DNA of 64,000 nt from Patescibacteria group bacterium (GCA_018816985.1 JAHIVA010000049.1:2466-66465), one strand, 5' to 3'; positions 22,021 through 39,664 are shown, counted from the stretch's first letter. The notes: generated by a model from the letters alone, not told the origin. Translations and numbers: made by a program.

Positions 22021-22024
22021 TTCT

Positions 22025-24472: not shown

Positions 24473-24477
24473 AATAT

Positions 24478-24501
24478 TATGTGGCGTTAAGCTCGTAGTT
24501 A
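24478..24501 (-). repeat. Conserved stop-to-start linker, family D copy 1 (rplO stop to secY start)
   Basis: TATGTGGCGTTAAGCTCGTAGTTA matches 33758-33781 at 23 of 24 positions. The last 3 nt are the complement of the upstream stop codon. Confidence 0.7.
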
Positions 24502-24801
24502 TTTAATTTTAATATGCTTTCCTTTTATCCCAAGACGCTTACGAATCTCTGAGAATTTCTCTTTTGGAGAAACAAGCTTATCTTTTTCTAGAATAAAAAC
24601 TTTTTGAATGGAATTAAATTGATAACCGCGATTCTTAGGTAATTTCTTAATAATATCACGAAGTTCTGGACGGCGCTTATTACCAGCGCGAGCTGTCTGG
24701 CCCTTACCTCCACGACCGGAAGTTTTTGCATGTTTACCCCCACGACCTACTAGTCGGTCTTTTTTATTTTTATGAGTTCTTTTTAAATTATGTATTTGCA
24801 T
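24499..24801 (-). CDS. rplO: 50S ribosomal protein L15 (short, 100 aa)
   Basis: VGRGGKHAKTSGRGGKGQTARAG motif. It follows rpsE directly, with no L30 gene between them. Confidence 0.8.
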   Translation of the reverse strand: MQIHNLKRTHKNKKDRLVGRGGKHAKTSGRGGKGQTARAGNKRRPELRDIIKKLPKNRGYQFNSIQKVFILEKDKLVSPKEKFSEIRKRLGIKGKHIKIK

Positions 24802-24802
24802 A

Positions 24803-25366
24803 TTATTTTTCGACTTCGGGAATAATTACTTCTTTGTTGGCAATAACCGCAATTTCCGGAGCTTGTTTGATGTATTTTGAAGAAATTTGAGAAAAAGCAG
24901 CCATTACCGCTTTCGCATTATTTAATTTATTTTTACTATTGGATAAAATCTTACCAGTAATATCCTTCACTCCGGAAAGTTTTACTATATCGCGAACTAC
25001 CGAACCTGCCACCAACCCGCGCCCTTTATTTGGAAGAAGTACCACACGTGAACCTGAAAATTTAGCAGAAAGTTCGTGAGGGATGGACATTGTCTTGGTT
25101 AAATTTAATCTAACCATATTTTTCTTAGCATTACGAAGCGCCTTATTGATGGCTAGAGCTGTATCTCCAGCTTTTCCCAAACCTAAGCCAACACTTCCTT
25201 TTTTATCTCCAGCTACAATTGCCACACTGAAAGAAAATCTACGTCCCCCGGCTACCACTCGCGTCACTCGGCGAATGTTCAGAATCTTTTGATCAAATTC
25301 AGGCTTAACTCTATTAAAAGAAGAAAATCTACGACCAGTATTTTTTTTTATATTTGTCTTTTCCAT
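24803..25366 (-). CDS. rpsE: 30S ribosomal protein S5
   Basis: IRRVTRVVAGGRRFSFSVAIVAGDKKGSVGLGLGKA. The start is probably MEKTNI. Confidence 0.9.
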   Translation of the reverse strand: MEKTNIKKNTGRRFSSFNRVKPEFDQKILNIRRVTRVVAGGRRFSFSVAIVAGDKKGSVGLGLGKAGDTALAINKALRNAKKNMVRLNLTKTMSIPHELSAKFSGSRVVLLPNKGRGLVAGSVVRDIVKLSGVKDITGKILSNSKNKLNNAKAVMAAFSQISSKYIKQAPEIAVIANKEVIIPEVEK

Positions 25367-25392
25367 ATGATTTAGTAAAATCACCTACTTGG

Positions 25393-25734
25393 TTAAAATT
25401 CTAATCCCACAGCTCGAGCTGCATCAGCTACTAATTTTATCCGGCCAGTATATTTAAATCCATTCCGATCAAAAACAACTTTCTTAATTTTTTCTTTCAA
25501 ACAAGCAGCACCAACTATCTGTCCGACTTCTTTTGCTCTTTCACTTTTTGTTCCTTTTTTTATTTTAACATCGCTAGCTTGCGCTAATGTTTTACCAGTT
25601 AAGTCATTAATCACTTGCGCATAAATAAATTTATTTGAACGAAAAACTGTTAACCTAGGGCGCGTTTCCGTCCCTTTTATCTTTACTCTTATCTTTTTTT
25701 TCAATCTTATTCTTTTGTTATTTTTATTAATCAT
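25393..25734 (-). CDS. rplR: 50S ribosomal protein L18
   Basis: RPRLTVFRSNKFIYAQVIND motif and operon position. Confidence 0.9.
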   Translation of the reverse strand: MINKNNKRIRLKKKIRVKIKGTETRPRLTVFRSNKFIYAQVINDLTGKTLAQASDVKIKKGTKSERAKEVGQIVGAACLKEKIKKVVFDRNGFKYTGRIKLVADAARAVGLEF

Positions 25735-25744
25735 TTTATTGTTA

Positions 25745-25790
25745 TCCCTATGTCGGACTTAGGGGAATTCCCCTAAGTCCGACATAGGGA
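25745..25790. repeat. Family A palindrome copy 1 (46-bp perfect palindrome)
   Basis: TCCCTATGTCGGACTTAGGGGAA / TTCCCCTAAGTCCGACATAGGGA. It fills the rplR-rplF spacer. Confidence 0.9.
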
Positions 25791-25794
25791 TTTA

Positions 25795-26349
25795 TTACAC
25801 TGTCTTTTTACCTTGTTTTCGTCTAATAACTTCATCCTCATAACGCATTCCTTTTCCCTTATAAGGCTCTGGTTTTTTCAAGGAACGAATAGCTGCCGTA
25901 AAACTTCCAACTAATTCCTTATCAATTCCGGTAATTGTAATATTATTTTTTTCAGCAGTGGCTGTTATTCCTTCTGGAATCTTTACAATAACAGGATGAG
26001 AGAATCCCAAAGCAAAATGCAACTCTTTACCTTTAATTTCCGATTTAAAACCAACCCCTTCTAATATTAATTTCTTTTGATATGGCGTAACTACTCCAGC
26101 AATCATATTTTTTAAATGGGAAGCATAAGTCCCCCAAAGAGATTTAGAAAATTTATCGTTTCTTTTTATGTTTAAATTTATGGTTTTACTTGCCCCATCT
26201 TTGGCGGGGTCAGTAATAGTAATAACAATATCGTCTCTAAAACTTTTAGTTAAAGTTCCCTTAGGGCCTGTTACTGTAAAAGTATTGCCATTTTGAGTTA
26301 CTTTTACTTCGGCTGGTATTAAAATTTCTTGTTTTCCTATTCTTGACAT
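25795..26349 (-). CDS. rplF: 50S ribosomal protein L6
   Basis: MSRIGKQEILIPAEVKV...GPKGTL. Confidence 0.9.
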   Translation of the reverse strand: MSRIGKQEILIPAEVKVTQNGNTFTVTGPKGTLTKSFRDDIVITITDPAKDGASKTINLNIKRNDKFSKSLWGTYASHLKNMIAGVVTPYQKKLILEGVGFKSEIKGKELHFALGFSHPVIVKIPEGITATAEKNNITITGIDKELVGSFTAAIRSLKKPEPYKGKGMRYEDEVIRRKQGKKTV

Positions 26350-26356
26350 ATATTTT

Positions 26357-26411
26357 TATTATTTATAGTGAGGACTTTCGGCTGAGCTCAGTCGAAGCCC
26401 TTGTCGAACTA
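26357..26411 (-). repeat. Family C stop-to-start linker copy (rpsH stop to rplF start), expanded by an internal hairpin
   Basis: mRNA sense: TAG TTCGACAAGG [GCTTCGACTGAGCTCAGCCGAAAGTC] CTCACTATAAATAAT..ATG. The bracketed hairpin is absent from the other three copies. Confidence 0.7.
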
Positions 26412-26795
26412 CCAAATTCTAAATAACGCCTCACCTCCAACTTGCTCCTTACGAGCTTCTTTACCTGATAAAATTCCTTTTGGAGTTGAAAGCACTAATA
26501 ACCCTTTTCCATTTCGAACAGAATGAATATCTTTCATTCTAAAGTAAACACGCCTAGATTGTTTAGAAATTCTTTCCACTTCAGCAATTTTCGGTTTTTT
26601 GTCAACATAAAGCAAATTTACCTCGAGCACAGGGTGTCCTGATTTTACTTTTTTAGAAATTTCAGAAACATAACCGGCTTTTTTTAAACATTCACCGATA
26701 GCATTTTTCATCTTAGAATAAGGAATTAACACAGACTCTTTGCCTGCTAGTGACCCGTTCTTCATTATTATTATCATATTTGAAATTGAATCCAT
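26409..26795 (-). CDS. rpsH: 30S ribosomal protein S8
   Basis: 128 aa. DSISNMIIIMKNG...GGEALFRIW matches the S8 termini. Confidence 0.9.
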   Translation of the reverse strand: MDSISNMIIIMKNGSLAGKESVLIPYSKMKNAIGECLKKAGYVSEISKKVKSGHPVLEVNLLYVDKKPKIAEVERISKQSRRVYFRMKDIHSVRNGKGLLVLSTPKGILSGKEARKEQVGGEALFRIW

Positions 26796-26807
26796 TTTGT
26801 TTTATTC

Positions 26808-26851
26808 CCTATGTCGGACTTAGGGGAGTTCCCCTAAGTCCGACATAGGGT
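26808..26851. repeat. Family A palindrome copy 2 (44 bp, central mismatch)
   Basis: CCCTATGTCGGACTTAGGGGAGTTCCCCTAAGTCCGACATAGGG in the rpsH-rpsZ spacer. Confidence 0.9.
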
Positions 26852-26858
26852 TATATTT

Positions 26859-27044
26859 CTACCAACTTGACTTACGAACACCTGGTAACATTCCTTCATT
26901 GGCTAATTCCCGAAAACAAATACGACAAATACCAAAGTCTCTCATAAAAGCATTACCCCGCCCACAGCGAAAACAACGATTTTTAGCCCGAGTGGAAAAT
27001 TTTGGTTTCTTTAAAGCTCTTGCTTTGACTGATGTTTTTGCCAT
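26859..27044 (-). CDS. rpsN: 30S ribosomal protein S14, type Z (zinc-binding, 61 aa)
   Basis: [29 protein letters not shown]...CRICFRE has the two CxxC pairs. The upstream part of the ORF is rejected. Confidence 0.9.
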
Positions 27045-27150
27045 AAATAAATATTGCCCATATATTAGGTGATATCTTGTGTGTTTTCTTAAAACCTCAT
27101 AGAAAGCCTTAAGGAGAAACACAGATCAAACCTAGCTTCTGGACCCTTTG

Positions 27151-27179
27151 ATACTAGCAAATTGGGCTTAATTAGTCAA
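27151..27179 (-). promoter_or_regulatory. Internal sigma70-like promoter upstream of rpsZ (TTGACT-17-TAGTAT)
   Basis: - strand TTGACTaattaagcccaatttgcTAGTAT. It shares AATTTGYTAGTAT with the tuf and rpsS promoters. About 100 nt of leader follow. Confidence 0.5.
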
Positions 27180-27182
27180 CTT

Positions 27183-27770
27183 TTATTTTTTATTTTCTTC
27201 CTCCTTTTTAAAAGGAATCCCTAAGATTTCAAAAAAAGCGGTACCTTCTTTTTTATTCTTAGCAGAAGAAACCAGTGTAATAGACATACCAAAAATATCC
27301 CTAATATCTTCATCAGCTGTTTCCGGAAAAATCGTATGCTCTCTTATCCCGATAGTTAAATTGCCAATATTATCTACTGCCACACGATTAATACCACGAA
27401 AATCTTTTGTTCTAGGAAGAGCAATATTAATAAGTTTCTCTAAAAAAGAATACATTCTCTTGCCCCGTAAAGTAACAACAATTCCGACTGGATCACCCTG
27501 ACGAATCTTGAAAGAAGAAATGGATTGTTTAGCTCCGCGAAAAGCAGTTTTTTGACCAGTAATTTTCGCCAAACGGTCACCAATATCTTCATTTTTGTTC
27601 TTATCTTTTTTTACCATCGTTCCAGTCCCAACATTAATAACGACTTTCATCATTCTTGGAGCAGCCAAAATATTTTTAAAATGAAACTCCGAGCCTAACG
27701 CCCCAGTAAAGTTTTTCATTTTTTCAAAAGCCTCTCTTTCTTTTTCTTTTACAGTTAATTGTTTTGTCAT
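27183..27770 (-). CDS. rplE: 50S ribosomal protein L5
   Basis: 195 aa. KVVINVGTG... and operon position. Confidence 0.9.
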   Translation of the reverse strand: MTKQLTVKEKEREAFEKMKNFTGALGSEFHFKNILAAPRMMKVVINVGTGTMVKKDKNKNEDIGDRLAKITGQKTAFRGAKQSISSFKIRQGDPVGIVVTLRGKRMYSFLEKLINIALPRTKDFRGINRVAVDNIGNLTIGIREHTIFPETADEDIRDIFGMSITLVSSAKNKKEGTAFFEILGIPFKKEEENKK

Positions 27771-27774
27771 ATGT

Positions 27775-27996
27775 TTATTTATCTAATTTTTTAACGTTTG
27801 AAACATCAATCGGCATCGCTATATTAACCATACTTCCCTTCTCCCCAGACTTCCTTGGGCGCTGATGTTTTTTCATCATATTTAATCCTTCGACAATAAC
27901 CTTATTTTCTTTAACTAAAACACGAACAATCTTCCCAGATTTTCCTTTATCTTTTCCTGTTATCACTTTTACATTTTCTCCTTTTTTTATTTTCAT
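27775..27996 (-). CDS. rplX: 50S ribosomal protein L24
   Basis: MKIKKGENVKVITGKDKGKSGKIVRV (KOW motif). The longer start at 28014 would run into the hairpin. Confidence 0.9.
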   Translation of the reverse strand: MKIKKGENVKVITGKDKGKSGKIVRVLVKENKVIVEGLNMMKKHQRPRKSGEKGSMVNIAMPIDVSNVKKLDK

Positions 27997-28008
27997 ATAC
28001 TTTTTTGT

Positions 28009-28052
28009 GTACAAGGTCTTGCCTTTAAGATTGCCAAGGCAAGACCTTGTAC
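28009..28052. repeat. Family B hairpin copy 1 (17-bp stem)
   Basis: GTACAAGGTCTTGCCTT-taagattgcc-AAGGCAAGACCTTGTAC in the rplN-rplX spacer. The arm core AAGGYCTTGCCTT is shared with 31239-31275. Confidence 0.85.
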
Positions 28053-28056
28053 TCTT

Positions 28057-28428
28057 TTAAATTACTTCCTGCGCTAAAGAAATTATTTTTTGAAATCCTT
28101 TTTCAGCTAATTCTCTAGGAATCGGTCCAAAAACACGGCCCGCTTTCGGATCTTTTTTTCCTTTTTCCAAGATAACTACAGCATTATCATCAAAACGAAT
28201 ATAAGAACCGTCTTTACGTCGGTAGGCGCTCCTTGTGCGAACAACCACTGCTTGATGCACGTCTTTTTTCTTAACTCCTTTTCTTGGACTAGCTACTTTG
28301 ACCGAAATAATAACCAGCTCACCAAGCGTGGCATATCTTTTTTTTGAAGACCCTAAAATCTTAAACACCTTTCCTACGGTGCCTCCGGCATTGTCTGTTA
28401 TTTTTACTAAAGTTTCATTTTGTATCAT
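28057..28428 (-). CDS. rplN: 50S ribosomal protein L14
   Basis: MIQNETLVKITDNAGG is the classic L14 start. Confidence 0.9.
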   Translation of the reverse strand: MIQNETLVKITDNAGGTVGKVFKILGSSKKRYATLGELVIISVKVASPRKGVKKKDVHQAVVVRTRSAYRRKDGSYIRFDDNAVVILEKGKKDPKAGRVFGPIPRELAEKGFQKIISLAQEVI

Positions 28429-28451
28429 TTTTGTCCGCTTAATGCGGGAAA

Positions 28452-28688
28452 TTATTTTTTAACTATTTTAAATCTTTTATCTTTTGATATTGGTCGAGTT
28501 TCAATTATTTCCACCTTATCGCCTATTTTTGATTCATTGTTCTCGTCGTGAGCTTTGAATTTTTTATTGACTTTATAAAACTTTCCATAAAGAGGATGTT
28601 TAACAAATCTGGACACAGAAACAACCACAGTTTTATTCATTTTATCTGAAACAACTATTCCTTTTATTTTTTTTGCTTTATTTTCCAT
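28452..28688 (-). CDS. rpsQ: 30S ribosomal protein S17
   Basis: [16 protein letters not shown]...HPLYGK motif. Confidence 0.9.
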
Positions 28689-28691
28689 ATA

Positions 28692-28877
28692 TTACTTATT
28701 AATTTCTGTCAAAATCCTTGCTATTTGTTTTTTAAGAGCTGAGGCTTCTTTTACATTTTTTGATTTAGAACCTTCCGCCTTAAAATGCAGTACTCGCAAA
28801 TTTTCTTGTAAAAGGATGAGTTCTTTTTTAAGCTCATCTTTTTTCATCTCTTTGAAATTGTTAATTTTCTTTGCCAT
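28692..28877 (-). CDS. rpmC: 50S ribosomal protein L29
   Basis: 61 aa, helical, in the conserved position between rplP and rpsQ. Confidence 0.85.
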   Translation of the reverse strand: MAKKINNFKEMKKDELKKELILLQENLRVLHFKAEGSKSKNVKEASALKKQIARILTEINK

Positions 28878-28882
28878 ATATC

Positions 28883-28912
28883 TTAATTATTTATAGTGAA
28901 CCTGTCGAACTA
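28883..28912 (-). repeat. Family C stop-to-start linker copy (rplP stop to rpmC start)
   Basis: mRNA sense: TAG TTCGACAGGTTCACTATAAATAATTAA gatat ATG. Confidence 0.75.
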
Positions 28913-29338
28913 TTGATTATGAGCTCTGCTGATAATGCGTGTTTTTAGCGGAAGTTTAGAACCAGCTTTTCGTAAAGCTTCCTGCGCAACCTTTTCCTCC
29001 ACGCCATCTACTTCAAAAATAATTCGTCCAGGTAAAACATCAAAACAATATCCCTGTGGATCTCCTTTTCCTTTTCCCATACCTACTTCAGCCGCTTTGG
29101 CGGTAAAAGGACGGTCTGGAAAAATACGGATCCAGTATTTACCAGTTTTGGTCAAGGTACGAGAAATAACTTTTCGGGCAGATTCAATCTGAGTTGATTT
29201 TACTCGCGCCTGAGTTTCGGATTTTAAACCGAAAGAACCAAAAACCAACTTAATACCACGCGTATCTGCTGTCCGTGCTTTTGGATTAGAGCGTCCCGTT
29301 TGCCATTTTCTAAATTTTACTTTTTTAGGAGTTAACAT
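28910..29338 (-). CDS. rplP: 50S ribosomal protein L16
   Basis: MLTPKKVKFRKWQTGR. Confidence 0.9.
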   Translation of the reverse strand: MLTPKKVKFRKWQTGRSNPKARTADTRGIKLVFGSFGLKSETQARVKSTQIESARKVISRTLTKTGKYWIRIFPDRPFTAKAAEVGMGKGKGDPQGYCFDVLPGRIIFEVDGVEEKVAQEALRKAGSKLPLKTRIISRAHNQ

Positions 29339-29342
29339 AAAT

Positions 29343-30053
29343 TTAATCAGAATCTGTCTTAGTGTTATTTTCTAATGATTCATTTTTTTTCGTATTTTTA
29401 TCGCTAAAAATTTTACCCCGATATATCCAAACTTTAATCCCCACTACTCCATAGGAAAGAGTAGCCCGTTCACGCTTAAAATCAATATCCGCGCGGAAGC
29501 TCTGAAGCGGAACAGATCCTCGTTTCAATTCTTCGGTACGGGCAATTTCGGCTCCCCCCAGTCGGCCGGACAAAACAATTCTGGCACCTTCTACTCCATG
29601 AGCCTGCATAACTTTTTCAATAATTTGCTTAATGACTCGGCGATAAGGCATTCTTTTTTCCAACCCTTCGGCAATCATATAAGCAACAATAGCGGCATCA
29701 GCTTCTGGATTAGAAACTTCAAGGATTTCAAGTTTAAAATCCTCTGGTCGAACCAATTTCAATTTATCCATTTTCTTTAAAATATCTTCTTTGAGCTTGG
29801 TCGCTCCCTCACCACTTCGGCCGATTAAAAGGCCCGGTCGGGAAGTCTTAACTATGAAACGAGTCGCTTTTCTACTTCTCTCAATTTCAATACTAGAAAT
29901 ATACATCCCTCGTAATTTTTTCTCTAAATATTGACGTATTAAAACATCTCCTTTTAAATAAGAAATATATTTTTTAGGATCAGCAAACCAACGAGACTTC
30001 CAGTCTCTTAATATAATCAATCTATGTGCATATGGGTGAACTATTTTACTCAT
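29343..30053 (-). CDS. rpsC: 30S ribosomal protein S3
   Basis: KIVHPYAHRLIILRDWKSRWFA, plus KH and S3-C domains. Confidence 0.9.
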   Translation of the reverse strand: MSKIVHPYAHRLIILRDWKSRWFADPKKYISYLKGDVLIRQYLEKKLRGMYISSIEIERSRKATRFIVKTSRPGLLIGRSGEGATKLKEDILKKMDKLKLVRPEDFKLEILEVSNPEADAAIVAYMIAEGLEKRMPYRRVIKQIIEKVMQAHGVEGARIVLSGRLGGAEIARTEELKRGSVPLQSFRADIDFKRERATLSYGVVGIKVWIYRGKIFSDKNTKKNESLENNTKTDSD

Positions 30054-30055
30054 AA

Positions 30056-30388
30056 TTATTTAACTTTTTTTTCTGCTAAAAGAATATTCAGGTGGCTAGT
30101 ACGCTTATTTATCCTGTGCCCTGAGCCCATAGCTGCCGGCATCATTCTTTTCATTGTAATACCTTTATCTACTCGCAATTCTTTGATAAATAAATTATTC
30201 GCCTCCATTCCCTTTTCTTTAGCATTGGCGACAGCGGAAAGTAAAAGTTTTTTAATCGGTAACCCTGCACGTTTAGCTAAAAAATCAAGCTCAACAATTG
30301 CTTGCATTACGTTTTTACCCTTGATTAGTCCAGCTACTAAGCGAACTTTTCTCGGAGACTGTCTGTAATTTTTTAAAAATGCTTTCAT
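30056..30388 (-). CDS. rplV: 50S ribosomal protein L22
   Basis: YRQSPRKVRLVAGLIKGKNV. Confidence 0.9.
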   Translation of the reverse strand: MKAFLKNYRQSPRKVRLVAGLIKGKNVMQAIVELDFLAKRAGLPIKKLLLSAVANAKEKGMEANNLFIKELRVDKGITMKRMMPAAMGSGHRINKRTSHLNILLAEKKVK

Positions 30389-30392
30389 TGTT

Positions 30393-30425
30393 TTAATAAT
30401 TATTTATAGTGAGCCTGTCGAATTA
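30393..30425 (-). repeat. Family C stop-to-start linker copy (rpsS stop to rplV start)
   Basis: mRNA sense: TAA TTCGACAGGCTCACTATAAATAATTATTAAAACA ATG. Confidence 0.75.
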
Positions 30426-30776
30426 TTTTTTCTCGCCCTTAGCGTCCTCGGAGACGGCAGTCGCAGACTTAGCTTGAGTTATTTCGGCTTCTTTCTTTTT
30501 CATTTCCAATTCTTTCTGCATCTTTCCTCCGTGCTTCATAAATTTCTTAGTTGGGGAAAATTCACCTAATCGATGCCCCACCATATCTTCCGTGACCAAA
30601 ACTTCTATATGTGTTTTACCGTTATAAATACCAAAAGTAAAACCAAGCATCTCTGGAGAAATCACGCAGGCTCTCTTCCAAGTCTTCACCATCGGAGTTT
30701 GTAACGGGTTTTTGCCGGCAATCTTTTTCAAGAGCCTTTCATCAACATTTAATCCTTTTTTGATACTTCTAGTCAT
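30423..30776 (-). CDS. rpsS: 30S ribosomal protein S19 (with K/E-rich C-terminal tail)
   Basis: MTRSIKKGLNVDERLLKKI...GIYNGKTHIEVLVTEDMVGHRLGEFSPT. The upstream 17 codons of the ORF are rejected. Confidence 0.9.
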   Translation of the reverse strand: MTRSIKKGLNVDERLLKKIAGKNPLQTPMVKTWKRACVISPEMLGFTFGIYNGKTHIEVLVTEDMVGHRLGEFSPTKKFMKHGGKMQKELEMKKKEAEITQAKSATAVSEDAKGEKK

Positions 30777-30802
30777 GTATTTTTTCTTTAGACAAACAAA
30801 AC

Positions 30803-30818
30803 GGCTCTCATTTGAGCC
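30803..30818 (-). promoter_or_regulatory. Hairpin plus U-tract at the predicted 5' end of the rpsS transcript
   Basis: - strand GGCTC-aaatga-GAGCC followed by gttttgtttg. It begins about 7-8 nt after the -10 box. Confidence 0.45.
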
Positions 30819-30825
30819 TTGAATC

Positions 30826-30853
30826 ATACTAACAAATTCAAGAAAAAAGTCAA
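30826..30853 (-). promoter_or_regulatory. Sigma70-like promoter restarting the operon at rpsS (TTGACT-16-TAGTAT)
   Basis: - strand TTGACTtttttcttgaatttgtTAGTAT is nearly identical to the tuf promoter at 35613-35640. Confidence 0.55.
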
Positions 30854-30866
30854 TAAAAACACGAAA

Positions 30867-30887
30867 GGCTCAATTTTCCTTTGAGCC
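30867..30887 (-). terminator. Intrinsic-terminator-like hairpin ending the rplB-proximal transcript
   Basis: - strand GGCTCA-aaggaaaat-TGAGCC followed by tttcgtgttttt. Confidence 0.5.
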
Positions 30888-31285
30888 GTTTAAAATATTT
30901 AAAATTGTGTGGGGTTCGGAGAGAGATAAACTCTTCCGAACCCCGAGCACTTGACGCTATTTATTGTTTGGATGCTGATACTTTTTCAAGTCGCCCCCCC
31001 CTCCTACCTTTTTTGGGAGGTAATCCCCTTGCCTCCCGGAGTTTTTTTATCATCGCCTTTTTCGTGGAGTTGCCCCTATTTTTCAAAAAAGAGTGGCACA
31101 TTTTTCAATCCTCCAAAAAGTAGTGGGAAACCTGTTCCCCCATCGGTCAAGACACCGACAGTACAAAGAACAGGCTTTATTTATCTGTAACACATATTAT
31201 CAATGCAAGCAATAGAAAATGTGGAAAACTTTCTCCTCAAGGCCTTGCCTTGGGCTCCCCTTAAGGCAAGGCCTTTTTTCGAAAA
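30888..31285. ncRNA. Unassigned structured G+C-rich non-coding region between rplB and rpsS (strand and identity unknown)
   Basis: Several stable helices, a C8 tract and no credible ORF. See the findings for details. Confidence 0.3.
31239..31275. repeat. Family B hairpin copy 2 (13-bp stem)
   Basis: AAGGCCTTGCCTT-gggctcccctt-AAGGCAAGGCCTT, immediately after the rplB stop and followed by TTTTTT on the + strand. Confidence 0.85.
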
Positions 31286-32125
31286 TTATTTATTCTTCCC
31301 GGTCTTTCTCCTAGAAACCATAAAGACATTTGAGTATTTTTTTGGTCCACGAGTTTTGCGTCCGCCGGTAACTTTACCCCACTTTGTTTTCGGTCTCTTA
31401 GTTCCGCGCCCTTGTCTGCCTTCTCCACCTCCATATGGATGGTCAACCGGATTCATTGCTGTACCGCGAACTGTCGGACGAATGCCTTTCCAGCGACTCC
31501 GTCCAGCTTTGCCGTAATTTTCCAAATGATGTTCTTCGTTGGAAACAGTCCCGACACAAGCCCAACAATTTTCATTTATTTTTCTTATTTCAGTAGAAGG
31601 CATTTTCAGATTGGTGTAACCATCAGCATTGGCCACCACTTGCGCGAAAATTCCTGCCGAACGACCAATCTTAGCACCTCCCTCTCTTTTAATTTCAATA
31701 TTATAAACAAAAGTTCCAACTGGAATATTTTTTAAAGGCAATCTGTTGCCTGTTTTAACTTCTGCTTTTTCAGAAACAATAAAAGAATCACCAGCTTTCA
31801 CAGACTTAGGTAAAATTACATATCTTTTTTCTCCATCTTTATAAACAGCCAATCCAATAAAAGCCGAGCGATTTGGATCATATTCAATAGTTTTTATTTT
31901 AGCTAAAATGTCTTTTTTATTATACAAAAAATCAACGGCGCGATAGAGGCGTTTGTGCCCGCTACCTTTATGCCTCATGGTAATACGTCCAGCACTATTT
32001 CTGCCGACGCTACGCCTGAAACCATAAGTCAGTGATTTAGTCGGTTTTGACTTGGTTAAAATTTCGCGGTAGTTCACGTTGGTCATTTGCCTTCTTGATT
32101 TGGTTGTTGGTTTGTATGTTTTCAT
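31286..32125 (-). CDS. rplB: 50S ribosomal protein L2
   Basis: GRNSAGRITMRHKGSGHKRLYR and GTAMNPVDHPYGGGEG. Confidence 0.95.
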   Translation of the reverse strand: MKTYKPTTKSRRQMTNVNYREILTKSKPTKSLTYGFRRSVGRNSAGRITMRHKGSGHKRLYRAVDFLYNKKDILAKIKTIEYDPNRSAFIGLAVYKDGEKRYVILPKSVKAGDSFIVSEKAEVKTGNRLPLKNIPVGTFVYNIEIKREGGAKIGRSAGIFAQVVANADGYTNLKMPSTEIRKINENCWACVGTVSNEEHHLENYGKAGRSRWKGIRPTVRGTAMNPVDHPYGGGEGRQGRGTKRPKTKWGKVTGGRKTRGPKKYSNVFMVSRRKTGKNK

Positions 32126-32397
32126 TATATAAATTCTATCTTGTCACCCTTTTTTAAATATACCAAGGCTTTCCGACCACCACCCTTTGTCCCCTTTTTA
32201 CCTTTCCACATAACATTTTTCTTTGGCACAGTTAAAACATTTACTTTCACCGGCTTTACTTTATAAAGAGTAAAAATAGCTTTTTTGATTTCTGTCTTAT
32301 TAGCGGAAGCGGTAATATCAAAAGTGTAAACATTTTGTTCGGCGGAAAAAGATGCTTTCTCAGTAATTCTTGGATTTTTAATAATTTGTATTGTCAT
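32125..32397 (-). CDS. rplW: 50S ribosomal protein L23
   Basis: 90 aa. ITEKASFSAEQNVYTFDI...KTEIKKAI. Confidence 0.9.
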   Translation of the reverse strand: MTIQIIKNPRITEKASFSAEQNVYTFDITASANKTEIKKAIFTLYKVKPVKVNVLTVPKKNVMWKGKKGTKGGGRKALVYLKKGDKIEFI

Positions 32398-32406
32398 AAT
32401 GATTTT

Positions 32407-32456
32407 GTTCCCTAAGTCGAACTTAGGGGAAATCCCCTAAGTTCGACTTAGGGAAC
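32407..32456. repeat. Family A palindrome copy 3 (24-bp arms, 2-nt centre)
   Basis: GTTCCCTAAGTCGAACTTAGGGGA-aa-TCCCCTAAGTTCGACTTAGGGAAC in the rplW-rplD spacer. Confidence 0.9.
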
Positions 32457-32459
32457 TAT

Positions 32460-33119
32460 TTAACCTCTGGATTCTAAAAATTTAACTGCTTCGACTGGAT
32501 TTTCTATTAAAAGATATTGGTGGTTTAAAACATCTAATGGATTTAAGTTTTTTAGAAAAACTATTTGAAGCTGAGGCAAATTTCTAAAACTCTTTTCTAT
32601 TTTTTCATCACGCCCAAAAAGAGCTGTTAGGACTCGAGCTTTCTTTGAACTGCCCAGCGGTTTCAACCCAGAAGCTTTGGCTAAATTTTTCATAACTTCC
32701 ACTGCAGATTTTGTTTTTATTGAAGAGGTAGAAAGAGTATTAATAAAAATAATTTCTCCATCTTTAAACTTTTTAGAAAGAACTGAAAATAAAGCTTGCG
32801 CACGCATTTTCTTGGATATTTTTCTTTTGTAATTTTTTTCAGCCAAGGGTCCGTGAGTAACTCCTCCACCAACCCAAATAGGACTACGAGAAGACCCGTG
32901 TCGGGCTCGTCCGGTTCCTTTTTGTTTCCAGGGTTTCTTGCCTCCACCACGCACTTCTCCACGATCTTTAGTGTCGGCTGTTCCGGCGCGTTTATTTGAA
33001 CGCATTCCTTCCACTACTTGATGCACTAAATCTGCCCGCCATTTAGCAGCAAAAATTTTAGCAGGAAGATCTATTGATCCAGCCACTGCACCTTTTTGAT
33101 CATATATTTTTGTTTGCAT
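32460..33119 (-). CDS. rplD: 50S ribosomal protein L4
   Basis: MQTKIYDQKGAVAGSIDLP...KPWKQKGTGRARHGS. An alternative start lies at 33131. Confidence 0.9.
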   Translation of the reverse strand: MQTKIYDQKGAVAGSIDLPAKIFAAKWRADLVHQVVEGMRSNKRAGTADTKDRGEVRGGGKKPWKQKGTGRARHGSSRSPIWVGGGVTHGPLAEKNYKRKISKKMRAQALFSVLSKKFKDGEIIFINTLSTSSIKTKSAVEVMKNLAKASGLKPLGSSKKARVLTALFGRDEKIEKSFRNLPQLQIVFLKNLNPLDVLNHQYLLIENPVEAVKFLESRG

Positions 33120-33136
33120 TTTTGCTTCCATAAAAA

Positions 33137-33751
33137 TTATCTCTGTACTATTTCCACTAAAGTTCCACGGCGACCAGCAATTGCTCCCTTAACTAGCAGT
33201 AAATTGTTTTCCTTGTCTACAAAAATAACTTGCAGATTTTTCTGAGTAATACGATTAGAACCCATTCTACCTGCCATTCTCATTCCCTTAGGAACGTGGG
33301 TACGCAATCCTCCACCAATGCTTCCAGGCTCTCGTTCAGAATGTTTTTGACCGTGAGTTCGTGGACCGCCAGAAAAACCATGACGCTTTACTACACCTTG
33401 AAAGCCCTTACCCTTGGAAATACTGGATACTGATATCTTGTCTCCAGGAGTAAAGATTGAAACATCAATACTATCACCTTCTTTAACACTAACCGTATCT
33501 GCCGGTTTAAGTCTAAATTCTTTAAGAGTTTTATAAAAACCTCCTTTCATTGCTCCTGCTTGAGACTTTGTAATTCTTTCCTTTTTCTGCAACCCAAAAC
33601 CAACTTGCACAGAATCATAACCGTCTTTTGATTTTTCAAAAATTCTAGTTACGATACTGGGTGTGGCAGAAACAATAGAAACTGGAACAACTTCTCCAGT
33701 ATCGGAAAAATATTCTGTCATATTTTCTTTTATCCCCAAAATAAATTTCAT
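33137..33751 (-). CDS. rplC: 50S ribosomal protein L3
   Basis: GKGFQGVVKRHGFSGGPRTHGQ. Confidence 0.9.
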   Translation of the reverse strand: MKFILGIKENMTEYFSDTGEVVPVSIVSATPSIVTRIFEKSKDGYDSVQVGFGLQKKERITKSQAGAMKGGFYKTLKEFRLKPADTVSVKEGDSIDVSIFTPGDKISVSSISKGKGFQGVVKRHGFSGGPRTHGQKHSEREPGSIGGGLRTHVPKGMRMAGRMGSNRITQKNLQVIFVDKENNLLLVKGAIAGRRGTLVEIVQR

Positions 33752-33757
33752 GTTTTT

Positions 33758-33781
33758 TATGTGGCATTAAGCTCGTAGTTA
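33758..33781 (-). repeat. Conserved stop-to-start linker, family D copy 2 (rpsJ stop to rplC start)
   Basis: TATGTGGCATTAAGCTCGTAGTTA; see 24478-24501. Confidence 0.7.
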
Positions 33782-34240
33782 CATCATTTTCACATCAATA
33801 TCAACACCAGAAGGAAGAGTTAAATTAGTCAAAGCTTCAACGGTCTTAGGATTTGGATTGATGATATCAATTAATCTTTTATGCACTCTTATTTCAAATT
33901 GTTCTCGACTATTTTTGTAGATAAAAGCAGAACGATTAACTGTATATTTTTTAATTTCAGTTGGGAGTGGCACCGGACCTACTATCTGCGCATCATAACG
34001 AATAGCAGTGTCTATAATTTGTTTGACTGAGCTGTCAAGTATTTTACTTTCATAAGCTCGTACCCGAATGCGAAGTATCACCTTATTCTCACCTCCGACG
34101 ACATGAGTAGGTTTCTCTTTTTCTTTTTTTGAAGAAACTCTCGGTGTCTTAGGTGCTTTTACGGTTTTCACTGTTGTGGTTTTTGCCACTTTAGGTTTTT
34201 TTGTTTTTGTTTCTGTTATTGCCATGAACTTTTTCTCCAT
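33779..34240 (-). CDS. rpsJ: 30S ribosomal protein S10 with a Lys-rich N-terminal extension of about 50 aa
   Basis: The core is [25 protein letters not shown]...GPVPLPTE. The start is at 34240 or 34225, and the first ATG lies inside the palindrome. Confidence 0.85.
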
Positions 34241-34279
34241 AAGTTAGACTTAGGGGAATTCCCCTAAGTCTAACTTATG
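34238..34279. repeat. Family A palindrome copy 4 (42-bp perfect palindrome)
   Basis: CATAAGTTAGACTTAGGGGAA / TTCCCCTAAGTCTAACTTATG in the tuf-rpsJ spacer. Confidence 0.9.
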
Positions 34280-34283
34280 ATTT

Positions 34284-35477
34284 TTAACCAAGAATTTTTG
34301 TAACAACTCCTGCACCGACGGTCTTACCTCCCTCACGAATAGCGAATCTTTGTGATTCTTCAAGCGCAACCGGAGTAACTAACTTAACGGTAATTTTTAC
34401 TGTATCACCCGGCATTACCATTTCTGTCCCTTCGGCCAAAGTCACATCACCAGTCACGTCTGTCGTTCGGATATAAAATTGAGGTTTATAACCTTTAAAG
34501 AAAGGAGTATGACGTCCACCTTCTTCTTTTTTCAAAACGTAAATTTCACAGGTAAAATTATCATGCGGAGTAACAGTCCCCGGCTTAGCAAGAACTTGTC
34601 CGCGGGTAATGTCTTCTTTCTTTAAACCCCGAAGAAGAATTCCAGCATTATCACCCGCCATCCCTTCCTGAAGATTTTTATTAAACATTTCAATTCCGGT
34701 TACTGTTGTCTTTTGAGTTGGCTTAATTCCAACAACCTCTACTTCTTCTCCAACTTTCACTAACCCTCTTTCAATTTTTCCGGTAACCACTGTTCCTCGT
34801 CCTTCAATGGAAAAAATATCTTCAACTGGCATCAAAAAAGGTTTCTTGATATCACGCTCCGGAATTGGTATGTAAGTATCAAGAGCATCTACCAATTCAA
34901 GAATTTTCTTGGCCCATTCATCATCTAGAGACTTTGCTTCAATACCTTTTAGAGCAGAACCACGAATAACTGGAGCTCCGGCCCCGTCAAATCCTTGCTT
35001 AGTCAAAAGCTCACGAATTTCTTCTTCCACTAAGTCAATCATATCCTTGTCGTCAACCATATCGCACTTATTCAGAAAAACAATAATCTTTGGTACTCCT
35101 ACTTGCTTGGCCAAAAGAACATGTTCACGAGTCTGGGGCATTGCGCCATCAGTTGCAGCCACTACGAGAATAGCACCATCCATTTGAGCGGCGCCAGTAA
35201 TCATATTTTTTATGTAGTCAGCGTGTCCTGGAGCATCAATGTGCGCATAGTGACGCGCGTCCGTCGCATACTCATTGTGAGAAATGTTAATAGTAATTCC
35301 TCGAGATTTTTCCTCAGGAGCATTATCAATTTGATCAACTCCTCGAAGACGAACCGTCTTACCAGCCATATTTAACACGTGCAAAATCGCAGCGGTTAAA
35401 GTGGTCTTGCCATGGTCCACGTGACCAATGGTGCCGACATTAATGTGCGGCTTATCTCTCTTAAATTCTTCTGCCAT
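34284..35477 (-). CDS. tuf: Elongation factor Tu
   Basis: [21 protein letters not shown] and NKCD. Confidence 0.95.
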
Positions 35478-35587
35478 AATTTTATTTAGGCTAATAAGTA
35501 AGACTTAATGTACGAGAACCAGTCACTAAGGCTTAACTACTAACTTTAATTAACTAATAATATCTAAAGCCAAAAAAGCAATAGAAA

Positions 35588-35606
35588 AACTGCAGAAAGT
35601 GCAGTT
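35588..35606 (-). promoter_or_regulatory. Hairpin plus U-tract at the predicted 5' end of the tuf transcript
   Basis: - strand AACTGCA-ctttc-TGCAGTT followed by tttctattgctttttt. It starts about 7 nt after the -10 box. Confidence 0.45.
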
Positions 35607-35612
35607 GTTTAG

Positions 35613-35640
35613 ATACTAACAAATTAAGAAAAAATGTCAA
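35613..35640 (-). promoter_or_regulatory. Sigma70-like tuf promoter (TTGACA-16-TAGTAT)
   Basis: - strand TTGACAttttttcttaatttgtTAGTAT. Confidence 0.6.
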
Positions 35641-35656
35641 CCCAGACAGGGTGGTG

Positions 35657-35914
35657 TTATTTATAAATATCATGGTCGCCTACCGAATGAAAATAGATTA
35701 CTTTTTCCGAAGCAAATTCAAATATTATTCTATAGCTATATGATATAGAAAAAGCCCAGTTAGGATATAATCTACCGGAAAGTTTATGTGTCTCAAGTGA
35801 TGGATGAAAAGGATTTTTTCTAAAAATTTTCTCTTTTTTCTTTGCGGATAATTTTAATTCAGCAGTCAGCTTTCTATATTCACGCTCAAATTTTGAAGAG
35901 TAAATTATCTGCAT
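35657..35914 (-). CDS. RelE/ParE-superfamily type II toxin
   Basis: 85 aa. FEREYRKL....H.LSG....W.F.I.YSYRIIF resembles RelE/YafQ/ParE-like toxins. It lies 12 nt downstream of the antitoxin gene. Confidence 0.7.
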   Translation of the reverse strand: MQIIYSSKFEREYRKLTAELKLSAKKKEKIFRKNPFHPSLETHKLSGRLYPNWAFSISYSYRIIFEFASEKVIYFHSVGDHDIYK

Positions 35915-35926
35915 AAAAATATAATT

Positions 35927-36142
35927 TTAATCCAGGTCAGCTAGTGATCTAAGAATTTTTCCCTCCCCACGAGCTATTTCGGCCCGACTTTCACGAATTT
36001 CTTTTACAAGTTGTTCTTCTTTCCAGCTTCTTACCGCATCTCTAAAAAACTCACTCACGGAAGCGTAATTGCCCGCTTTGACTTGTTTTTCTACTTCATG
36101 CTTTAGCTCTTTCGGTATTGAAATATTTAAGGTTGTTCTCAT
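35927..36142 (-). CDS. Ribbon-helix-helix (ParD/CopG-like) antitoxin
   Basis: 71 aa. The N-terminal MRTTLNISIPKELKHEVEK looks like an RHH beta-strand and SVSEFFRDAVR like its helix. Confidence 0.7.
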   Translation of the reverse strand: MRTTLNISIPKELKHEVEKQVKAGNYASVSEFFRDAVRSWKEEQLVKEIRESRAEIARGEGKILRSLADLD

Positions 36143-36148
36143 ATATCA

Positions 36149-36178
36149 AGTGTAGCACATTGTGCTACAGGGTGTCAA
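36149..36178 (-). promoter_or_regulatory. TA-module promoter (TTGACA-18-TACACT-6-ATG) with an embedded palindromic operator
   Basis: The palindrome TGTAGCAC-att-GTGCTACA (36151-36169) sits between the -35 and -10 boxes, as expected for RHH autoregulation. Confidence 0.5.
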
Positions 36179-36447
36179 ATCAAGACCCCGTCTAATAATT
36201 TAAATTCAAATGGAATTTCTTTGGCATTTTTTTTGCCTTTGTATTTTTCTTCCAATTCGCGTTTTTTGGCTTCCAATTCTTCCATAGTAAAACCCATTTC
36301 TTTTATTTTTTGTTCTCCTAATTTATAAAATGTAGGAGAGAAACCAACGGTTTTAATTCCAAGGTCTTTTCTACCAACACCGATAAACCAATCAAAAGGT
36401 ATTTCCTTTTTCTGTTCCGATTTTATGTTTGGACCTTCGGTGCTCAT
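36175..36447 (-). CDS. Hypothetical 90-aa protein
   Basis: MSTEGPNIK... with the internal repeat EIPFDWF / EIPFEFK. The start was chosen because TATAAT lies 6 nt upstream. Confidence 0.45.
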   Translation of the reverse strand: MSTEGPNIKSEQKKEIPFDWFIGVGRKDLGIKTVGFSPTFYKLGEQKIKEMGFTMEELEAKKRELEEKYKGKKNAKEIPFEFKLLDGVLI

Positions 36448-36463
36448 TTTTTTATTATATAAC

Positions 36464-36487
36464 AAAAAACACCCTTAGGTGTTTTTT
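36464..36487. terminator. Bidirectional intrinsic terminator after fusA
   Basis: AAAAAACACC-ctta-GGTGTTTTTT. Confidence 0.65.
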
Positions 36488-36493
36488 GAAGCT

Positions 36494-38644
36494 TTATTTC
36501 CTCGCAGCAATAATAGTCTCGGCTACGTTTTGTGGCACAATGTCGTAACGGAAGAATTCCATCGTGAAACCGGCACGGCCTTCGGTCATAGAACGCAAGC
36601 CGGTCATATAACCGAACATTTCCGAAAGAGGCACTATTGCTTTTATTACTTTATTCATTCCACGATCTTCCATTCCTTCGATTAAAGCACGCTTAGAAGA
36701 AAGGTTACCAGTAACGTCTCCCATAAACTTATCTGGAGTGACAACTTCCACTTTCATCATCGGCTCTAGAATAACCGGACTGGCTCGACGACAAGCGTCT
36801 TGAATAGCCATACTGGAAGCAATCTTGAAAGCCATTTCATTGGAATCAACTTCATGATAACTTCCATCCCAAAGCTCTACCGAAACATTAACGATTTTAA
36901 AACCAGCCACCACTCCGCGGTCTAATCCTTCCTTGAATCCCTTTTCACAAGGCGCAATATATTCCTGCGGAATTACTCCCCCTTTAATACTGTTGATAAA
37001 TTCAAAGCCTTCAGATCTTTTGGTATTTTTCGGCAAATCTTCCATTTCTTCTTTGGTCAGCATCACCATTGGTTTCACTTTTATCTTCACATGTCCGTAA
37101 TTTCCACGTCCACCTGATTGCTTAATATATTTACCTTCAGCCTCAGAGTTTCCGGTAATTGTTTCCCGATAAGCAACCTGTGGTTTACCCACATTAGCTT
37201 CTACTGTAAATTCTCTTTTTAATCGATCCACAATAATTTCTAGATGAAGTTCTCCCATTCCCGCAATAATAGTCTCGCCTGTTTCTTGATCAGTGGTAAC
37301 TTTAAAAGTCGGGTCTTCTTGCGCCAAACGATTAAGCGCCATCCCCATTTTTTCTTGGTCTGCTTTTGTTTTCGGCTCAATACGAAGCTGAATAACCGGT
37401 TCTGGAAAAACAATACGATTTAATTCAATTGGATTATTTTCATCACATAGTGTGTCGGAAGTAATGGTATCTTTCAATCCTACGGCTGCGGCTATTTCTC
37501 CGGCAAAAACTTGTTTTACTTCTTCTCTATCGTTCGCATGCATCCGCAAGATTCGTCCGATACGTTCTTTGTTGCGAGTACGTGGATTGTAAATATAACT
37601 TCCAGCCATTAAACTCCCTGAATAAACTCGGAAAAAAATAATTTGCCCAACAAATGGATCTGTCGCGACCTTAAAAGCTAGGGCTGAAAACGGCTCAACG
37701 TCGGAAGCGTGACGCACCGCAGGCTCCTCAGTGTCAGGATTTATGCCATCAATTGGTGGAATGTCTGTCGGAGCTGGTAAATAATCAACAACCGCATCAA
37801 GCACCAACTGAACACCTTTGTTTTTTAACGCAGAACCAGCAAAGACTGGGAAAATTTCATTAGCAATTACAGCTTTACGTAAAGTTTTTTTTAATATTTC
37901 GATACTTGGAATCATTCCTTCTAAATATTCAGTCATCATCACCTCATCTGTCTCTACTATTTTTTCGACAAGTTCACTATGAAATTTTTCTGCCTCAGTT
38001 TTTAATTCTTCTGGAATTTCTTTTTCAATCACAAGATTACCCATTTCTCCTTCAAAATAAAAAGCTTTCATTTGAAGTAAATCAATAACTCCTTCATGTT
38101 TTTCTTCCAATCCAATAGGAATCTGCATACGAACAGCTTTTTTTGTCAGTCTATCTAAAATAGTAGAAAATGAATGTTCAAAAGAAGCGCCAGTCCTATC
38201 TAATTTATTAATAAAACAGACACGAGGAACTTTCGCTTCATCCGCATAACGCCAATTCGTTTCAGATTGCGGTTCTACGCCAGCCACACCATCAAAAACA
38301 ACAACAGCACCATCAAGCACACGGAGAGAACGTTTTACTTCTACCGTAAAGTCAATGTGTCCAGGGGTATCAATAATATTAAAACGATGTTTCTTTGATT
38401 TATCTTTTATGTCAGCATACGTAGGTGTCCAGAAACAAGTTACAGCCGCAGAAGTAATAGTAATTCCGCGTTCTCGTTCTTGTTCCATCCAGTCTGTCGT
38501 CGTCTCCCCATCGTGCACTTCCCCAATCTTATGCGATACACCAGTATAAAAAAGCACCCGCTCAGTCGTAGTCGTTTTCCCCGCATCAATGTGTGCGATA
38601 ATTCCAATATTGCGAACTTTTTCTAAAGGATAATCTCGTTCCAT
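36494..38644 (-). CDS. fusA: Elongation factor G
   Basis: [23 protein letters not shown]. 716 aa. Confidence 0.95.
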
Positions 38645-38649
38645 ATATT

Positions 38650-38680
38650 TTAATTATTTATAGTGAGCATAGTCGAACTA
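38650..38680 (-). repeat. Family C stop-to-start linker copy (rpsG stop to fusA start)
   Basis: mRNA sense: TAG TTCGACTATGCTCACTATAAATAATTAAAATAT ATG. Confidence 0.75.
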
Positions 38681-39148
38681 CCAAGCAAAATGGGCAAAAG
38701 CTTTGTTGGCCTCGGCCATTTTGTGAGTATCTTCTTTCTTTTTAATGGCTGTACCTTCATTCTTAGAAGCAGCGATAAGTTCATCAGCTAATTTAATATA
38801 CATAGGAGAACCTTTTTTATTACGAGCCGCGTCACGAATCCAGCGCATCGCTAGAGCGAGTCTTCTTTCGGCACGTACCTCTCTAGGTACTTGATAGTTG
38901 GCTCCTCCAATACGCTTGGAACGGACTTCTGTCAGTGGACCAGCATTTTTTAACGCTAAATCAAAAACCTCTAAAGGATTTGAATTACCTGTTTTTTCCT
39001 TAATAATATCTAGGGCCTGATACATTATTTTTCTGGAAGTTTCCTTCTTACCAGACCACATAATATAATTAATAAACTTTTCTAATTTTTGAGAATTATA
39101 AATAAAATCAGGTTCTACTACATTTCTATTTTTTACTTTTCTACGCAT
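38678..39148 (-). CDS. rpsG: 30S ribosomal protein S7
   Basis: 156 aa, ending AEANKAFAHFAW. Confidence 0.9.
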   Translation of the reverse strand: MRRKVKNRNVVEPDFIYNSQKLEKFINYIMWSGKKETSRKIMYQALDIIKEKTGNSNPLEVFDLALKNAGPLTEVRSKRIGGANYQVPREVRAERRLALAMRWIRDAARNKKGSPMYIKLADELIAASKNEGTAIKKKEDTHKMAEANKAFAHFAW

Positions 39149-39159
39149 AAAATTTATTT

Positions 39160-39585: not shown

Positions 39586-39610
39586 TAAATTAACTTATTA
39601 CAAAACAAAA

Positions 39611-39660
39611 GAGTCCGAAGACTCAACTCAAAATATACTATATTAGTATAAAAATTGCAA
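39611..39660 (-). promoter_or_regulatory. str operon promoter (TTGCAA-17-TATATT) followed by a UUCG hairpin plus U-tract
   Basis: -35 at 39655-60 and -10 at 39632-37. The hairpin GAGTC-ttcg-GACTC (39611-24) is followed by ttttgttttg on the - strand. Confidence 0.5.
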
Positions 39661-39664
39661 ACCT

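Follow-up and report, generated by a model that had tools for sequence, protein, structure and literature searches.

We analysed a 64,000-nucleotide stretch of DNA (hereafter the window) from a Patescibacteria group bacterium (GCA_018816985.1, JAHIVA010000049.1:2466-66465). It corresponds to contig C23 of a source assembly of 1.02 Mb in 136 contigs with a G+C content of 36.8%; the genomes of relatives measure 0.4–0.9 Mb. The minus strand of the window encodes a str-S10-spc ribosomal-protein cluster that extends from rpsL to secY and from which the L30 gene is absent. Four of its intercistronic spacers are occupied by copies of one short linker, which we call Family C, and two by copies of another, Family D (Table 1). 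All six linkers reported in an initial annotation of this DNA were found where it had placed them, far beyond chance expectation. The names of ten flanking genes (S8, L6, L16, L29, S19, L22, S7, L15, S10 and L3) were confirmed with NCBIfam, and those of fusA and secY are taken from gene order and sequence alone.

Each of the four Family C copies in the window opens with a stop codon (TAG or TAA) directly joined to TTCGAC (block 1), followed by 3–4 variable nt and then YTCACTATAAATAAT (block 2), after which 8–10 nt lead to the ATG of the next gene. The Family C 15-mer has four exact matches in the window, compared with 0.91 expected even when two mismatches are allowed, and no exact match in the 1.02-Mb assembly beyond these four. 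In the rpsH>rplF copy the two blocks are separated by an insert that the initial annotation had already recognized as an extra hairpin. We find this insert to be 27 nt long, with a predicted hairpin of −13.2 kcal/mol, and to be unique in the genome. The linkers had also been described as spanning exactly from stop to start; the stop codon held up as an anchor, but the conserved part ends 8–10 nt before the ATG in the window.

In order to define the anatomy of Family C across genomes, we scanned one genome per species (185,579 species) with the pattern TTCGACN{3,5}TCACTATAAATAA, in which the stop codon was not specified, and read 88 copies from 80 of the at least 118 matching stretches. TTCGAC directly follows TAG in 75 copies, TAG with one added A in 8, TAGG in one and TAA in two. 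TAG therefore stands before the motif in 84 of 88 copies that were found without a stop in the pattern; TAG accounts for about 19% of the stops in the source genome. In 81 of 86 copies the stop of the motif ends an open reading frame (ORF) that is 50 or more codons long; the corresponding numbers for the two control frames are 4 and 7. No base upstream of TAG is conserved in the copies read, and therefore the 5′ edge of the element is the stop codon exactly. The consensus is TAG-TTCGAC-N3-4-(G)CTCACTATAAATAA, or UAG-UUCGAC-N3-4-(G)CUCACUAUAAAUAA in mRNA, and comprises 26–27 nt. While the blocks are fixed among genomes of 30–59% G+C, the internal N3–4 spacer takes 27 forms (AAGC, TACGC, AGGC, TTCGC and others), and a search that left block 1 unspecified still found TTCGAC or a transition variant of it in most copies. 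Since 3-nt and 4-nt spacers change the reading frame, the element is not coding, which led us to reject a read-through peptide or small ORF. A general UAG-UU termination context was rejected because TT follows only 15% of TAG stops, as was release-factor loss because RF1 (PAT motif) and RF2 (SPF motif) are both present.

The element is strand-specific. The ribosomal-protein clusters of the window and 59 relatives, 978 kb in total, contain 18 exact matches to the 13-mer TCACTATAAATAA; every one lies on the sense strand and none on the antisense strand, at 10–11 nt past a stop codon or, where the hairpin is inserted, at 37 nt. The random placement on both strands against which the initial annotation had warned was not seen in these clusters. 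An ATG lies 1–6 nt past the motif in 61 copies, and the interval from the 3′ end of the motif to the AUG is 8–10 nt in the window, 1–6 nt in most other genomes and 1–13 nt overall, giving stop-to-start distances of 27–40 nt at Family C junctions. Of the two anchors originally proposed, the stop is thus invariant and the ATG is not, as a terminator follows the motif in a few genomes. The RNA of Family C is predicted to be unstructured (minimum free energy of 0).

The gene pairs joined by Family C are classic co-translated operon partners. By BLAST against the proteins of the window they include S8>L6 (20), S14>S8 (6), S19>L22 (4) and L23>L2 (3). Pairs read from flanking peptides are S13>S11, S11>S4, L13>S9, GroES>GroEL, AtpF>AtpH>AtpA and PilB>PilC, as well as two transketolase halves, CsoR>CopA, SecE>NusG and SSB>S18. 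At two loci, L012 (G001:C71) and L105 (ELA233), the motif after rpsG is intact, and what comes next is not fusA but a terminator hairpin plus a TTGACT promoter; in both, the operon is split downstream of the retained motif. A Harrisonbacteria contig (MHJJ01000006.1, 4989-5041) contains a perfect tandem duplicate with a 30-nt period that is located outside any stop-start junction.

Nearly all stretches recovered in the species scan belong to Parcubacteria/Paceibacteria, and the lineages among the listed matches include Kaiser-, Nomura-, Zambryski-, Harrison- and Vogelbacteria. With even sampling, the motif is present in 24 of 401 class genomes (21 of 282 genera), with no match to a reversed-pattern control, and in none of roughly 376 sampled Patescibacteria outside the class. 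There are 1–4 copies per genome; a complete 859-kb Kaiserbacteria genome of 59% G+C has exactly one, at S8>L6. The sequence of Family C is almost unchanged throughout this whole class of uncultured, ultra-small bacteria. The initial view of it as a feature local to this operon was too narrow, given its class-wide range and its presence at non-ribosomal junctions.

Within this range the junctions that carry the motif change rapidly. The pattern TTCGACN{3,8}TCACTATAAATAAT is found in 8 of 60 relatives, always adjoining a stop codon, at rpsL>rpsG, at rpsN>rpsH and at two non-ribosomal junctions tentatively read as pyrF>guaA and as a CsoR-type regulator before a copper transporter. At rpsS>rplV, clusters of seven further relatives have the motif as well, in six cases exactly and in the seventh with a single mismatch. 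Mapped onto a tree of 47 relatives built from concatenated ribosomal proteins, its occurrence is patchy: the source genome has the motif after rpsG, rpsS, rplP and rpsH, its near neighbour G033 only after rpsL, and other close relatives after rpsN or rpsH. Conservation at the same junction in relatives, which the initial annotation had asked for, is seen at rpsS>rplV; turnover between junctions is fast. Orthologous junctions without the motif mostly have 1–15-nt A/T-rich spacers and TAA stops, which indicates that TAG arrives with the motif. Fast gain and loss combined with constant blocks and a drifting spacer suit a functional cassette that is complete in itself and can be copied from junction to junction; a repeat that is purely selfish, or an old site that stays in place, fits less well.

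One putative phage contig in IMG/VR has a genuine copy of the motif, placed after an ORF of 519 aa and before the gene that follows it, which suggests that Family C is a host expression signal. A phage origin of the element was rejected, as the strict pattern gave one atypical viral match and the relaxed pattern gave one genuine copy plus an unrelated look-alike family. Related phage contigs at loci L244–L257 (IMG/VR) share CCTATCACTATAAATAACAATATTGTGATCACAG, which does not follow an ORF there and may be a T7-type phage promoter; it has no relation to the element anchored on a stop codon.

Family D (TAA-CTACGAGCTTAAYGCCACATA) has two copies in the window versus none expected, each directly past a TAA stop. 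Its exact copies are limited to this genus, where they occur at rplO>secY and rpsJ>rplC in the source genome (G000), at rpsJ>rplC in G028, and at a junction of G344 read from peptides as rpoA>rplQ; G344 has an additional copy with two mismatches at a junction likewise read as infC>rpmI. Family D copies start at TAA and end 7–9 nt before the ATG, and at one G344 copy the upstream frame reads into the motif as far as an internal TAA, where it ends. Elsewhere in the class, matches with two mismatches are at noise level (about 9 versus 5 for reversed-pattern controls). The Family D layout, TAA-CTACGAG-N6-GCCACATAA, parallels the TAG-TTCGAC-N3-GCTCACTATAA layout of Family C, and the two families may be related. 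A variant Family C copy at rplW>rplB in G004 (L026), TAGTTCGACAAGCTCACTACGAGTAATTTATG, has CTACGAG, the opening word of Family D, as its block 2 and may be a link between them.

The clusters of relatives (L016–L074) also contain other repeated spacers at non-orthologous junctions of single genomes. These include AATTACGAATTATCAATTACGAATT (G028 and G010), AAAGTTnTAAAGTTCATAAAGTA (at rplO>secY in five genomes, and elsewhere too) and arrays of CTAGAGCCTAGAGCC, and many of them likewise begin at a stop codon. Two further features interrupt the cluster of the window, namely a structured non-coding insert of 458 nt between rplB and rpsS and a toxin-antitoxin cassette between fusA and tuf (Table 1). 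Both are followed by a conserved TTGAC(T/A)-N16-17-TAGTAT promoter.

Table 1. Positions, in window coordinates, of the ribosomal-protein cluster, its intercistronic linkers and its two other inserts.
Feature	Span	Strand	Stop codon	TTCGAC	Insert or spacer variant	Block 2 (Family C) or conserved sequence (Family D)	Next start codon
str-S10-spc cluster, rpsL to secY	23201-39585	-
Family C, rpsH(S8)>rplF(L6)	26347-26411	-	TAG 26409-26411	26403-26408	hairpin insert 26373-26399	CTCACTATAAATAAT 26358-26372	rplF ATG 26347-26349
Family C, rplP(L16)>rpmC(L29)	28875-28912	-	TAG 28910-28912	28904-28909		TTCACTATAAATAAT 28886-28900	rpmC ATG 28875-28877
Family C, rpsS(S19)>rplV(L22)	30386-30425	-	TAA 30423-30425	30417-30422		CTCACTATAAATAAT 30399-30413	rplV ATG 30386-30388
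Family C, rpsG(S7)>fusA	38642-38680	-	TAG 38678-38680	38672-38677	4-nt spacer variant TATG	CTCACTATAAATAAT 38653-38667	fusA ATG 38642-38644
Family D, rplO(L15)>secY	24470-24501	-	TAA 24499-24501			CTACGAGCTTAACGCCACATA 24478-24498	secY ATG 24470-24472
Family D, rpsJ(S10)>rplC(L3)	33749-33781	-	TAA 33779-33781			CTACGAGCTTAATGCCACATA 33758-33778	rplC ATG 33749-33751
Structured non-coding insert, rplB/rpsS	30828-31285
Toxin-antitoxin cassette, fusA/tuf	35478-36493

Most carriers of Family C lack a Shine-Dalgarno (SD) system. The lack of SD sequences pointed out in the initial annotation is supported both by the minimal usage in the source genome, where GGAGG precedes about 4% of starts, and by the 16S rRNA of the order. 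In 30 of 30 relatives of the order the 16S 3′ tail reads GGA(A/U)UAAUUCAA... where GGAUCACCUCC is expected, and the CCUCC anti-SD is absent. CCUCC is also absent in 10 of 13 motif-bearing class genomes with a readable tail. These tails agree with the report that an anti-SD is detected in only 48% of Parcubacteria (PMC9297842). The assembly contains two distinct 16S 3′ ends, neither with CCUCC: that of contig C95 (GGAAUAAUUCAAUUUGAA) matches the genus, while that of contig C39 (GGAUCAUUUAUUUU) does not and probably derives from the assembly's 8% contamination. In about 850 crude gene calls, TATAA/ATAAT and TAAAA/AAAAT peak exactly at −12/−11 from the ATG, with TG at −15/−14. As the −12/−11 peaks precede first genes and operon-internal genes alike, it is probable that many genes are served by a promoter of their own in a position suited to leaderless mRNA, and leaderless transcription may be pervasive.

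The reading that we tentatively favour is that Family C may be an RNA-level, stop-anchored signal coupling termination at UAG to initiation at the next cistron. A ribosome terminating at UAG would meet the element on a polycistronic mRNA, and the element would retain this ribosome, or recruit a fresh one, for initiation at the close-by AUG. Such a sequence-specific hand-over would substitute for SD-assisted translational coupling, with the ribosome, RF1 or a dedicated protein as candidate readers. The element would on this account act at the RNA level and in translation, and it probably relays expression from one gene to the next in carriers most of which lack the SD system. The tolerated 27-nt hairpin insert fits RNA read-out, in which a stem-loop can bulge out, better than read-out of duplex DNA. 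As in a coupling signal, the stop is an integral part of the motif and close to the next start codon (84 of 88 copies with TAG, 81 of 86 in frame). The initial annotation had suggested a dedicated termination-reinitiation or ribosome-loading signal, a suggestion that would account for the stop within the motif and suit the loss of the anti-SD, but for which 27–40 nt would be a long distance.

Several observations weigh against a hand-over from stop to start. Known coupling relies on very short or overlapping stop-start arrangements, which are not what is seen at Family C junctions. Lengthening the spacer by less than 20 nt reduces coupling (PMC12548453), and 27–40 nt exceeds the distances over which ordinary termination-reinitiation works efficiently (PMC12548453; Huber et al. 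2023 therein). No significant complementarity of Family C to 16S rRNA was detected in tests of the tail and of whole-16S duplexes. In about 6% of copies it is a terminator hairpin and not a start codon that comes after the motif, and two genomes, G623 and G491, carry the motif yet keep a canonical or near-canonical anti-SD. The use of different junctions by close relatives looks like copy-and-paste mobility. Finally, the element is dispensable, because only about 6% of class genomes carry it, in 1–4 copies, and most orthologous junctions do without it.

Family C matches no described signal: Rfam covariance models gave no match at E≤1 at any linker in window positions 22000–42000, and in the literature searched we found neither the motif in an intercistronic context nor any paper on intercistronic signals of the candidate phyla radiation (CPR). 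Among the alternatives, it could be the site of a dedicated sequence-specific RNA-binding protein that defines processed mRNA ends or stabilises and activates the downstream cistron, with termination not involved. A long invariant single-stranded sequence with a variable inner spacer, present in 1–4 copies and patchy in the class, is the low-copy pattern typically seen when a cis-site is inherited together with its specific reader, and no RNA partner was found, as a search of the genome for a trans-acting RNA returned only the motif's own antisense strand. We nevertheless regard such a site as unlikely, since it leaves unexplained both the in-frame stop as the first triplet in 94% of copies and the identity of that stop as UAG. 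Somewhat more doubtful is a small selfish copy-and-paste repeat that would be safe for operons by bringing its own stop and leaving the next start intact, its two blocks being kept constant through recognition by the mobilising machinery rather than through any use to the host. The different junctions in close relatives (four in the source genome, rpsL only in G033), the TAG that comes with the motif and the Harrisonbacteria tandem duplicate all suit such a repeat. Against this, Family C has no terminal inverted repeats, no hairpin and no known associated transposase, its copy number is very low, and it is never antisense and almost never outside co-directional stop-start junctions; no consistent target-site duplication (TA) was seen when copies were read by eye, uncounted. 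In addition, the spacer has diverged widely and the blocks have not, which favours long-term selection over recent spread. A compact, specific promoter of T7-like length, served by a special polymerase or factor and producing short-leader mRNAs, appears improbable despite a striking likeness: by inspection CTCACTATA equals positions −9 to −1 of the T7 promoter (9 of 9), TAGTTCGAC agrees with TAATACGAC at 7 of 9, the 26-nt size resembles that of phage-type promoters, and the source genome is rich in promoters close to start codons (the −12/−11 peaks). The T7 promoter consensus is however a contiguous 23 bp from −17 to +6, with GGGAGA at +1 to +6, whereas the halves of Family C are split by 3–4 nt and its positions matching +1 to +6 read AATAAN. 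The motif also never heads an operon, and a promoter leaves the in-frame stop and the tolerated hairpin insert unexplained. A single-subunit RNA polymerase (PF00940) was found in none of 32 motif-bearing genomes, nor in the phage contig, in a search whose control, T7 polymerase, scored E=9.9e-110; the source genome has none either. T7-type transcription was rejected based on the split halves, the missing PF00940 polymerase and the in-frame stop at 81 of 86 copies. A sigma-70 promoter was rejected as well, because TTCGAC lies only 8–9 bp from TATAAA with no −35 element at 16–18 bp and nothing conserved upstream, and so was a leaderless promoter, whose extended −10 would have a fixed place at −12 to −7 from the ATG, because TATAAA is spread flat over 4–9 nt from the ATG (−10 to −15) in contrast to the sharp −12/−11 peak of the genome.

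Pairing with rRNA is very improbable. It would make block 2 (AUAAAUAA) a replacement SD, or block 1 a tether like the termination upstream ribosomal binding site (TURBS) of viruses, pairing with an altered 16S segment for which the 3′ tail, the Parcubacteria-specific helix 26 (h26) loop UAUCGACC and the 1090 region have been considered. The 16S tail is AU-rich at the CCUCC position and block 2 stands at the usual place of an SD, but 114 of 500 shuffled motifs pair with the tail as well, and the tail varies between motif-bearing lineages while the motif is constant. In the best duplex with 16S (AGUGGGCUAACGAAC, −17.9 kcal/mol), both blocks are paired and the variable spacer stays free. This duplex is however equalled by 26 of 300 shuffles (p of about 0.09), its target apparently lies within an rRNA stem (CCC...GGG, by inspection), and that target differs by one base in most motif-bearing lineages, where the energy is −13.8 kcal/mol. 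Unusual conservation of the h26 loop in Parcubacteria has been reported (PMC9297842), and the 16S of 19 relatives shows a short helix 26 whose apical loop is always UAUCGACC. The likeness of this loop to block 1 (AGUAUCGAC versus AGUUCGAC) is one of the same sense and not of complementarity, so that only the palindromic UCGA can pair; a protein binding both the h26 loop and block 1 is conceivable. We give almost no credence to the further proposal, made in the initial annotation, that the linkers are decayed half-sites of palindromes like the repetitive extragenic palindromic (REP) elements found in other spacers of the operon. GTTCGAC does occur in one palindrome copy, and palindromes and linkers occupy equivalent spacers. 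The motif, in contrast, is unstructured, strand-specific and class-wide among genomes with unrelated palindromes, which excludes a palindrome half-site as well as a hairpin repeat, and the shared TTCGAC/GTCGAA pointed out there is at chance level, as TTCGAC occurs 10 times on the plus and 9 times on the minus strand of the window.

Comparison with known systems places Family C close to several of them without matching any. Translational coupling likewise involves co-directional operon partners, often of one complex, with the stop near the start and on the sense strand only. However, known coupling operates across an overlap or a very short spacer and is aided by SD pairing, whereas Family C spans 27–40 nt in mostly anti-SD-less hosts and is a fixed sequence of 22–23 bases that includes UAG. 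The proposed likeness to the TURBS of caliciviruses and influenza B is that a specific RNA retains the terminating ribosome for a nearby AUG. TURBS lie upstream of the stop/start inside the upstream ORF and pair with 18S helix 26, in contrast to Family C, which lies downstream of and starts with the stop and has no significant rRNA complementarity. Promoters of the T7 group (class III) share with Family C the core (9 of 9), the upstream half (7 of 9) and a similar length and invariance, and differ from its split halves, in-frame stop anchor and location inside operons rather than at their heads. The chloroplast PPR10 sites (atpI-atpH and psaJ-rpl33) are likewise conserved, single-stranded sequences of about 20–25 nt at few intercistronic sites and affect expression of the flanking cistrons, but their reader, a pentatricopeptide repeat (PPR) protein, is known and they have no relation to a stop codon. 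REP, BIME and REPIN elements, which are mobilised by RAYT proteins, are also short intergenic repeats just past stops with patchy occurrence and rapid turnover; Family C differs in having no palindrome, one orientation, 1–4 copies per genome and blocks conserved class-wide.

Returning to the coupling of UAG termination to the next start, a more specific version, which we consider possible although rather doubtful, is that Family C may be the cis half of a UAG(RF1)-specific restart system that operates without SD pairing in Parcubacteria. The UAG-terminating ribosome would read UUCGAC in its entry channel, after which the ribosome, or a factor specific to the lineage, would be passed along the unstructured CUCACUAUAAAUAA to the next AUG. 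Such a restart would stretch translational coupling to spacers of 30–40 nt, and the element, as a cassette that supplies both stop and restart by itself, would spread from junction to junction.

How internal genes of operons are expressed in CPR/Patescibacteria is an open question that concerns a large and nearly all uncultured share of bacteria, many of which lack an anti-SD. A 26-nt, stop-containing signal kept across 30–59% G+C provides a concrete, testable handle on it, with possible uses in bicistronic reporters, as bait for its reader and in better annotation of genes and operons. Should the element instead prove to be a promoter or a protein site, its near-identity with the T7 promoter core would still need explaining. 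If it is a restart signal, Family C would give the termination-reinitiation elements of viruses their first bacterial counterpart.

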